Virus record (IMG/VR): IMGVR_UViG_648276652_000015
Direction: 5' to 3' (one strand)
DNA length: 16,822 nt
Source of the DNA: a virus
Taxonomy: Duplodnaviria; Heunggongvirae; Uroviricota; Caudoviricetes
Part shown: positions 13,920-16,822 of the stretch, piece after piece
How positions within the stretch are numbered: the stretch's first letter is position 1
Layout of the letters: each line of letters begins with the position of its first letter
Notes under the pieces: model-generated
Databases searched by the model: none
What the model was told of the DNA's origin: nothing
What the model saw: the letters and a program-made list of their open reading frames with translations, nothing else
Program-made: the position numbers and the translations under genes

Positions 13920-16715
13920 ATGGCAGTACGGATTTCAGGTGTACTGAAAGATGGCGCAGGTAAGCCGATACAAAACTGCACCATTCAGCTAAAGGCCAGG
14001 CGCAACAGCACCACGGTGGTGGTGAACACAGTGGCCTCAGAAAACCCGGATGAAGCCGGGCGTTACACAATGGACGTCGAGTATGGTCAGTACAGCGTCA
14101 GTCTGTTGGTGGAGGGATTCCCGCCGTCACACGCCGGGATTATCACCGTATATGAGGACTCAAAGCCGGGCACACTGAATGATTTCCTCGGTGCAATGAC
14201 GGAGGATGATGTCCGGCCAGAGGCACTGCGCCGTTTTGAACTGATGGTGGAAGAGGTGGCGCGTAACGCGTCCGCAGTGGCACAGAACACGGCAGCCGCG
14301 AAGAAGTCAGCCGGCGATGCCGGCACATCTGCCCGTGAGGCGGCAACCCATGCGACTGATGCTGCAGGCTCAGCACGCGCAGCCAGCACGTCAGCCGGAC
14401 AGGCCGCTTCGTCGGCTCAGTCAGCGTCTTCCAGCGCAGGAACGGCATCAGCAAAGGCCACTGAAGCATCAAAAAGTGCTGCCGCTGCAGAGTCCTCAAA
14501 AAGCGCGGCGGCCACCAGTGCCGCTGCGGCAAAAACGTCAGAAACGAATGCGGCAGCGTCACAACAATCAGCAGCCACTTCAGCATCCACCGCGACCACG
14601 AAAGCGTCAGAAGCTGCCACCTCAGCCCGGGATGCGGCGGCCTCAAAAGAGGCAGCGAAATCATCAGAAACGAACGCATCATCAAGCGCCAGTAGTGCCG
14701 CTTCCTCGGCAACGGCGGCAGGCAATTCCGCGAAGGCGGCAAAGACGTCTGAGACAAACGCCAGGTCTTCTGAAACGGCAGCGGGACAGAGTGCCTCAGC
14801 TGCGGCAGGCTCAAAAACAGCGGCTGCGTCGTCTGCCAGTGCCGCGTCAACAAGTGCCGGGCAGGCCTCAGCCAGTGCCACCGCCGCCGGAAAATCGGCA
14901 GAAAGTGCTGCATCGTCCGCTTCAACAGCCACAACGAAGGCTGGCGAAGCCGCTGTACAGGCCAGCGCAGCAGCGAGGTCTGCTTCCGCAGCGAAGACAT
15001 CCGAGACGAACGCGAAAGCGTCGGAAACCAGCGCAGAATCCTCAAAAACGGCTGCCGCATCGTCCGCCAGTTCGGCGGCGTCATCGGCATCATCTGCGTC
15101 TGCTTCAAAAGATGAGGCGACCAGACAAGCGTCCGCAGCGAAGGGCAGCGCCACGACGGCATCCACGAAGGCGACAGAGGCAGCTGGCAGTGCGACGGCG
15201 GCAGCTCAGAGCAAAAGTACGGCGGAATCCGCGGCAACGCGCGCTGAGACAGCGGCAAAACGGGCAGAGGATATTGCATCCGCCGTGGCGCTTGAGGATG
15301 CGAGCACGACGAAAAAGGGGATAGTACAGCTCAGCAGTGCGACCAATAGCACTTCCGAGTCACTGGCGGCAACGCCAAAAGCCGTTAAGGCCGCGTATGA
15401 CCTGGCTAACGGGAAATACACCGCACAGGATGCAACGACAGCACAGAAAGGGATAATCCAGCTAAGCAGCGCGACCAACAGCACGTCTGAAACGCTGGCG
15501 GCAACGCCAAAGGCAGTAAAATCAGCCTATGACAATGCAGAGAAACGTCTGCAGAAAGACCAGAACGGCGCTGATATACCCGATAAGGGACGCTTCCTGA
15601 ACAACATTAACGCGGTCAGTAAAACAGACTTTGCTGATAAGCGTGGTATGCGTTATGTGCGGGTTAACGCTCCTGCAGGTGCAACATCTGGAAAATATTA
15701 CCCTGTTGTTGTTATGCGTTCTGCTGGCTCAGTAAGCGAACTGGCATCAAGGGTCATTATCACCACGGCAACGCGAACCGCAGGCGATCCGATGAATAAC
15801 TGCGAGTTTAACGGATTTGTTATGCCTGGTGGCTGGACTGACAGGGGGCGTTATGCTTATGGAATGTTCTGGCAATATCAAAACAATGAACGAGCCATCC
15901 ACTCAATAATGATGAGTAATAAGGGCGATGATTTGCGCTCTGTGTTCTATGTTGATGGCGCTGCTTTCCCTGTTTTTGCGTTTATCGAAGATGGCCTGTC
16001 AATATCCGCACCTGGTGCTGATCTCGTTGTTAATGATACGACCTATAAGTTTGGGGCAACAAATCCAGCGACTGAATGTATCGCGGCGGACGTTATCCTT
16101 GATTTTAAGAGTGGGCGTGGTTTTTATGAGTCTCATTCGTTAATCGTTAACGATAACTTGTCGTGCAAAAAACTTTTTGCCACAGACGAAATTGTAGCGC
16201 GTGGTGGTAATCAGATTCGAATGATAGGTGGGGAGTATGGGGCATTATGGCGTAATGATGGCGCTAAAACTTACCTGCTGCTTACCAATCAAGGTGATGT
16301 TTATGGTGGATGGAATACATTAAGACCGTTTGCTATTGATAACGCAACCGGCGAACTGGTTATTGGAACCAAGCTGTCTGCAAGTCTGAACGGTAACGCA
16401 TTGACAGCAACAAAGCTGCAAACGCCAAGACTGGTTTCTGGGGTTGAGTTTGATGGTTCAAAAGATATTACTTTAACCGCCGCGCATGTGGCTGCTTTTG
16501 CCAGAAGGGCAACGGATACATATGCCGATGCGGATGGTGGCGTTCCCTGGAATGCCGAATCAGGCGCTTACTGTCAACGCCAAGATTATTGGCCGTTTTT
16601 CGCCATTTTTAATGTCCGCTATTGGTCATTAATGTTGTCCGCTTTCCGCCATTTCATCATCACTGATTGGCGTGGCGTTTTTTGCCAGCACTCCCGCTTT
16701 GCGTTTTTCCTTTAA
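13920..16715 (+). CDS. stf: Side tail fibre protein Stf, 3' end interrupted by an IS21-family element (ORF tail from about 16572 is IS-derived read-through)
   Basis: N-terminus [38 protein letters not shown]... matches lambda Stf as recalled, followed by an Ala/Ser-rich repeat region and [15 protein letters not shown] modules. The last about 48 codons ([18 protein letters not shown]...) are antisense to the IS end and istB 3' end, so the native C-terminus and downstream tfa are missing from this window. Confidence 0.8.
14265..15300 (+). repeat. Ala/Ser/Thr-rich low-complexity coding repeats within stf (recurrent AAKTSETNA-type units)
   Basis: AAKTSETNA / AAKSSETNA-type units occur at least four times. 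GC-rich GCN/TCN codon runs create long shadow ORFs in other frames and on the - strand. Confidence 0.6.
15315..15533 (+). repeat. Tandemly duplicated 29-codon tail-fibre module ([29 protein letters not shown] / [29 protein letters not shown])
   Basis: Two copies at 15315-15401 and 15447-15533 with high protein identity and clear nucleotide similarity. I recall lambda Stf carrying a single copy of this motif. Confidence 0.65.
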
Positions 16716-16822
16716 CCGGTAGCTTTCTCCTTTGATGTTCAGTGTGGTTGAGTGGTGGAGCAGTCGATCCAGGATTGCCGTTGCCAGCACGTTATCGCCG
16801 AACATCTCCTCCCCAGTCGGCG
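16572..16822 (-). mobile_element. Terminal part of an IS21-family insertion sequence (continues beyond window); boundary approximate
   Basis: Minus-strand IstB-like ORF ends at 16629. The stf-like reading frame loses plausibility around 16570, where TGTCAACGCC... begins; IS21-family ends typically start TGT. Exact boundary not determinable without the other end. Confidence 0.55.
16629..16822 (-). CDS. IstB-like ATP-binding transposition helper protein (IS21 family), C-terminal part; 5' end outside window
   Basis: Minus-strand translation ...[63 protein letters not shown] (stop at 16629-16631). The FGD...[10 protein letters not shown]...NIKGESYRL motif is characteristic of IstB C-termini. Confidence 0.75.

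Follow-up and report, generated by a model that had tools for sequence, protein, structure and literature searches.

At the right-hand end of a lambda-like prophage contig, a gene that starts out as a side tail fibre gene (stf) runs without a stop into DNA of a different kind, and the question is whether the resulting open reading frame (ORF) encodes a tail fibre with a novel C-terminus or an stf gene that was interrupted by a mobile element. The stretch of DNA analysed here (the window) is the complete 16,822-bp draft contig ADWU01000059.1 of assembly GCA_000179155.1, which belongs to E. coli MS 119-7. Under the WGS prefix ADWU, this strain (HM339) is recorded as having been isolated from the colon/rectum of a patient with Crohn's disease (PMC8741296). 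The late genes follow the order known from lambda (major capsid E, FI, FII, Z, U, V, G, T, H, M, L, K, I, J, lom, stf), and the complete set of tail genes is kept in the window.

Consistent with the original prediction of a frame that stays open from 13920 into insertion sequence (IS) DNA, we found an uninterrupted stf ORF of 931 aa on the + strand at 13920..16715. The prophage tail fibre N-terminal domain PF08400 covers Stf residues 1-134 (E=1.1e-71), with further matches to PF03406 and PF21446. Public gene calls split the gene and report stf only from 15285 (476 aa), with antisense ORFs called in the Ala/Ser-rich shaft region at 13856-13984, 14143-14376, and 14417-15166. Given that the 931-aa frame from 13920 begins with a PF08400 domain, these split and antisense calls are artefacts.

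To locate the breakpoint, we compared the window with intact homologues at both the protein and the DNA level. In BLASTP against the intact Stf of E. coli HS30-1 (1160 aa), the window Stf showed 99% identity up to residue 884, where the alignment ended (counts in Table 1). At the DNA level, the intact empty site reads GGCGCTTAC followed directly by AATGTCACTCGC, whereas the window continues from GGCGCTTAC into TGTCAACGCCAAG. At the same site, HS30-1 reads GCGCTTAC followed by AATGTCAC, and the window reads GCGCTTAC followed by TGTCAACGCC. Without the IS, stf running on past 16571 would read GCGCTTACAATGTCAC. As stf homology ends after base 16571 in both the DNA and the protein comparison, the breakpoint lies at 16571/16572. 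This break coincides with the first nucleotide of the IS inverted repeat, which was defined from nine complete 2125-bp copies of the element. An IS junction had been predicted with a start at 16540; the junction itself stands, but its position was resolved by the alignment to the intact homologue about 32 bp further in. A 5-bp overlap between stf and the IS, suggested by megablast stf matches that reached 16576, was rejected as a gapped-alignment artefact (TTAC--TGTCA against TTACAATGTCA in the intact sequence).

The position of the break also explains the length of the ORF. Read inward from its first base in the stf frame, the IS terminus offers exactly 47 codons before a stop, which accounts for the 47 IS-derived residues (931 - 884). 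The earlier estimate that about the last 48 codons of the ORF are IS-derived was thus right about their origin, whereas the count is 47 codons plus the stop.

The DNA beyond the break was readily assigned. Positions 16572-16822 were 99.6% identical to the istB-side terminus of a 2125-bp element that PGAP labels 'IS21-like element ISEc62 family'. Searching with this segment, we obtained 293 matching places, spread over 98 of the 5426 complete E. coli genomes; the 127 records that matched it at >=99% identity were all annotated as istB of an IS21-like element. Nine complete copies were examined, each 2125 bp long; the annotated ones carry istA (390 aa), for a DDE transposase, followed by istB (264 aa), for an AAA+, DnaC-like helper ATPase, which ends near the right terminus. 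In the window copy, istA would lie past the contig end. In the reference copy (L001, 4001-6125), both products scored above the cutoffs of their NCBIfam models, with 282.8 bits against 160 for IstA (NF033546) and 296.3 bits against 200 for IstB (NF038214). In the window, the minus-strand ORF at 16629..16805 agrees in 58 of 58 positions with the IstB of a complete copy (264 aa; residues 207-264), and it matches the C-terminal positions of the IstB models NF006616 (E=9.6e-15) and NF038214 (E=1.4e-12). The IstB-like C-terminus that had been read on the opposite strand from the letters alone is therefore confirmed, including its stop codon. The istA and istB genes are oriented antisense to stf, with the istB end facing the 5' part of stf.

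The structure of the terminus agrees with this assignment. It carries the feature typical of IS21 ends, an inverted repeat beginning 5'-TG, and stf homology stops exactly there; in addition, an internal repeat, TGTCCGCT, lies ~42 bp inside both IS ends. In its complete copies, the element shares the istA-istB organisation, the length of 2125 bp, the TGT... inverted repeats, the internal repeats, and the 4-5 bp target duplication with the IS21 family (IS21 / IS100 type), where duplications of 4-8 bp are typical, and it is common in ETEC genomes and plasmids under the PGAP label ISEc62 family. The window copy shows no difference in kind from the family; only its last 251 bp are present, its site in stf was found in no other genome searched, and its istB contains an additional C, which is either a frameshift or an error of sequencing. 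This C at 16808/16809 (CATCTCCTCCCC in the window, CATCTCTCCCC in all other IS copies found) lies 14 bp from the contig end and would shift the istB frame just upstream of Met207. The IS copy may accordingly be defective, or the base may be an error of homopolymer or contig-end sequencing. Together, the DNA identity of 250/251, the IstB match, and the end of Stf homology at residue 884 bear out the prediction that an IS21-family element interrupts stf.

Table 1 Coordinates of the prophage genes, IS ends, and junction features in the window
Feature	Position	Strand	Remarks
IS66-family element end (PGAP: ISCro1 family)	1..249	+	in 3' part of head decoration gene
Major capsid gene	372-1397		downstream of head decoration gene
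J	9709-13188		intact; 1159 aa
lom	13256-13855		between J and stf
stf, genuine 5' portion	13920..16571	+	codons 1-884; 875/884 aa identity to HS30-1 Stf
Predicted target-site copy TTAC	16568..16571		abuts IS end; second copy expected at far end
IS21-family right (istB-side) end	16572..16822	-	250/251 identity to positions 1-250 of complete copies
Terminal inverted repeat	16572..16583		TGTCAACGCCAA; 11/12 positions match other end TGTCAGCGCCAA
Read-through tail of chimeric stf ORF	16572..16715	+	47 codons (...FFL) + TAA stop; IS-derived
3' end of istB	16629..16822	-	IstB residues ~201-264; stop codon 16629-16631

A second mobile element marks the opposite end of the contig. The C-terminus of an IS66-family transposase is encoded at 1-219 (PF13817 DDE_Tnp_IS66_C, E=3e-17), and the sequence of this element, at the left contig end, terminates in ...CGCTTAC. 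Phage homology, at 100% for HS30-1 and other sequences, starts at ~249, within the 3' part of the head decoration gene. HS30-1 thus serves as the 'empty-site' reference for both the stf and the head decoration gene insertions. Both ends of the contig thus lie in IS copies, and at least two IS insertions affect the prophage. As repeated IS copies break draft assemblies, it is also understandable that the contig terminates inside an IS. The presence of the second IS in the head decoration gene points to a decaying prophage rather than a regulated system.

Considering the above results, it is very probable that a known 2125-bp IS21-family IS transposed into stf of a lambda-like prophage and thereby gave rise to a 931-aa chimeric ORF without a tip. 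In the proposed course of events, ordinary transposition mediated by IstA (transposase) and IstB (helper ATPase) would have inserted the element between codons 884 and 885 of stf. The Stf frame would then run 47 codons into the IS terminus before reaching a stop, and the 931-aa chimera would retain the virion-attachment N-terminus and the shaft and lack the 276-aa C-terminal tip.

The domain content of the window Stf shows what was kept and what is missing. The 5' 76% of stf is present, with the N-terminal attachment domain, the Ala/Ser-rich shaft with its Phage_fiber_2 repeats, and the Gp34_trimer domain. The window ORF lacks the collar and the His-rich, T4 gp37-like needle or receptor-binding tip. 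The lost part corresponds to the 276 residues 885-1160 of HS30-1 Stf, which match the T4 gp37 tip structure 2XGF (E=3e-89); within it, intact HS30-1 Stf has the additional domains Collar (PF07484, residues 951-998) and the His-rich Phage_fiber repeat PF03335. The stf stop codon of HS30-1 is also where tfa (Caudo_TAP) begins, the gene for tail fibre assembly. Since the stf gene of the window has no gp37-like tip, it represents a truncated allele, and its domain content suggests that functional side tail fibres could not be made from it.

Whether the missing part of stf still follows the element depends on what happened at its far end. Target duplications in the complete IS copies were 4 bp long in six of nine cases and 5 bp in one; two copies had none. 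Given that most complete copies have 4-bp duplications, the far junction is expected to carry TTAC. It should lie ~2.1 kb beyond 16572 and read ...TTGGCGCTGACA-TTAC-AATGTCACTCGC..., continuing with stf codon 885 onward and then tfa; in the form based on HS30-1, the expected sequence is ...TTGGCGCTGACA-TTAC-AATGTCAC.... More generally, the predicted signature of a simple insertion is TTGGCGCTGACA, then N(4-5), then AATGTCACTCGCTCTGG (...GACA-TTAC-AATGTC...). At this far junction, going by the intact relative, a TGA two codons upstream of the duplicated TAC should close the frame, and gene calling would be expected to report a 251-aa 'MKAHYRN...' product. A simple insertion is the most likely case and a probable one. 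It would place the 3' part of stf and tfa ~2.1 kb downstream after TTAC, uncoupled from late transcription. In the original prediction, the fibre tip and tfa were described as 'displaced or lost', an appropriately cautious wording given that the contig stops after 251 bp of the IS.

An appreciable, though unlikely, alternative is that the IS insertion is real and was followed by a rearrangement, either an adjacent deletion or an inversion or deletion through recombination with another IS copy, so that the 3' part of stf and tfa are deleted or located elsewhere, not 2.1 kb downstream. Such events are not rare, as shown by the two of nine complete copies, from finished genomes, that have no target duplication (L025 and L013, one of them adjoining IS1), which indicates rearrangement after insertion. 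The IS66-family insertion in the same prophage also fits, as do the remnants with only the 3' end of stf and tfa beside IS1 or IS3 that are common in public assemblies. Furthermore, we looked up the predicted 251-aa stf remnant by exact match with nine sequences derived from homologues of the lost 276 aa (seven built variants plus P0079 and P0104). Three of these exact sequences were on record, none of them on a contig of GCA_000179155.1, and the stf 3' remainder was thus not found in this assembly. These failed look-ups are weak negative evidence, however, because the strain may have another tip variant or another gene call. The 4- or 5-bp duplications in seven of the nine complete copies argue against a rearrangement, as simple insertions make up the majority. 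One candidate for the stf remainder, a gene 247 bp from a contig start (L007), was rejected, as that contig breaks inside an intact stf.

The same IS21-family element also resides in the copper-resistance sensor gene pcoS of two ETEC strains. These two insertions have different positions and orientations, with duplications of CGTG and TGAC.

Next to the fate of the 3' part, we assessed how widespread the junction is. A 38-nt pattern spanning the stf::IS junction had no matches in viral, species-representative genome, or metagenome contigs. Likewise, no place spanning the junction was found in the 5426 complete E. coli genomes (megablast of 15800-16822) or in 50,697 phage records, and the gene-product index holds no record of the exact 931-aa chimeric protein. 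By these sequence searches, the stf::IS junction is a strain-specific allele.

Its absence from all other public sequences searched would also be expected if reads of stf had been chimerically joined to a repeated IS during assembly. The window is a draft contig with repeats at both ends, and the single-base discrepancy 14 bp from the contig end points in the same direction. Nevertheless, the join coincides with base 1 of the terminal inverted repeat of the IS, as predicted by transposition and not by a random chimera, and the IS continues for 251 bp past the junction. A join located exactly at the IS terminus makes an assembly chimera very unlikely.

A different view of the locus would be that Stf(1-884) with its 47-aa tail is expressed, assembles into a side fibre that is altered or has no tip, and has been retained for a reason. 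This is extremely improbable. Conceivable reasons would be an altered host range or some benefit that the host draws from the tail genes, and a related reading would be a real preference of the IS for tail fibre genes; nothing that we found supports any of these. In all collections searched, the junction occurs in this strain alone, the second IS of the prophage sits in a head gene, and a targeting of sequences that resemble the element's own TGTCA end was rejected, as the motif occurred within <=25 bp of the target in only three of seven reconstructed sites. A scan of the junction for promoters and terminators yielded counts no different from those of shuffled sequence.

The mosaic and variable C-termini of tail fibres might suggest that the 931-aa product is simply a functional natural form of Stf with a short alternative C-terminus, its resemblance to an IS being incidental. 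The sequence comparisons effectively refute this view: the DNA of the tail shares 99.6% identity with an IS terminus that occurs at 293 places elsewhere, none of them within a fibre gene; the tail is antisense to istB; no homologue has it; and the receptor-binding domains are absent. In agreement with the original prediction that the tail is not native, no stf homologue continues into it in the 5426 complete E. coli genomes, the phage records, or three contig collections.

To place the insertion of the IS21-family element among known cases, we compared it with other disrupted side tail fibre genes. In lambda PaPa, a frameshift in stf prevents synthesis and assembly of the side fibres; infection through J continues, and the loss of Stf is tolerated with slowed adsorption (PMC12617516). 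The likeness to laboratory lambda that had been drawn from the sequence of the window is a fair analogy with respect to the outcome, the loss of side tail fibres (PMC12617516). In both cases, a lambda-type stf is disabled, the C-terminal gp37-like tip is not made, and the J-dependent tail tip is untouched. They differ in that the lesion here is a 2.1-kb transposable element instead of a 1-bp frameshift, and that tfa is also separated from stf. Unlike in lambda PaPa, the head decoration gene is disrupted as well, so that normal virions are unlikely in any case.

A second likeness is to the IS-driven decay of lambdoid prophages in E. coli, such as Rac/Qin-type remnants with stf-tfa fragments, where an IS inside the late genes and a truncated stf are likewise found. 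In contrast to those remnants, the window retains the 5' part of stf and the complete tail gene set, and not a 3' remnant. Both partners, the IS21-family IS and the lambda-type stf, are already known, as is the inactivation of prophage structural genes by IS elements. The stf::IS allele is ordinary prophage decay and involves no new mechanism. With it, one more IS-inactivated structural gene of a prophage is documented, here in a gut isolate of E. coli from a patient with Crohn's disease, and no new question arises for phage or transposon biology. The value of the finding lies in annotation: the 931-aa ORF is an IS-disrupted stf pseudogene, not a tail fibre with a novel C-terminus, and the contig should be treated as part of a prophage with an IS copy at each end.

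At many public loci (L004, L006, L016-L021), the opposite part of stf has been kept: a 251-aa 'MKAHYRN...' stf 3' gene is followed there by tfa and a Pin-type invertase gene. The upstream neighbours of these 3' remnants vary and include IS1 (L018), IS3-family transposases (L006), and Nu1 fragments (L017, L019). In addition, many public E. coli proteins appear, judging by their Pfam domains, to combine an N-terminal fragment of a lambda late protein with the same Stf C-terminal tip (P0001, P0008, P0016, P0078, P0084-P0086, P0091-P0096, P0101, P0102, P0105). Their N-terminal parts come from capsid E, terminase, Nu1, portal, S49/ClpP protease, tape measure, or Lom. Judged from these domain combinations, the fusions suggest recurrent internal prophage deletions that end in the 3' part of stf. 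In P0001, the only fusion that was read in sequence, the switch from capsid E to Stf comes after ...EAFDP, which places it 9 residues ahead of the IS site in the window.
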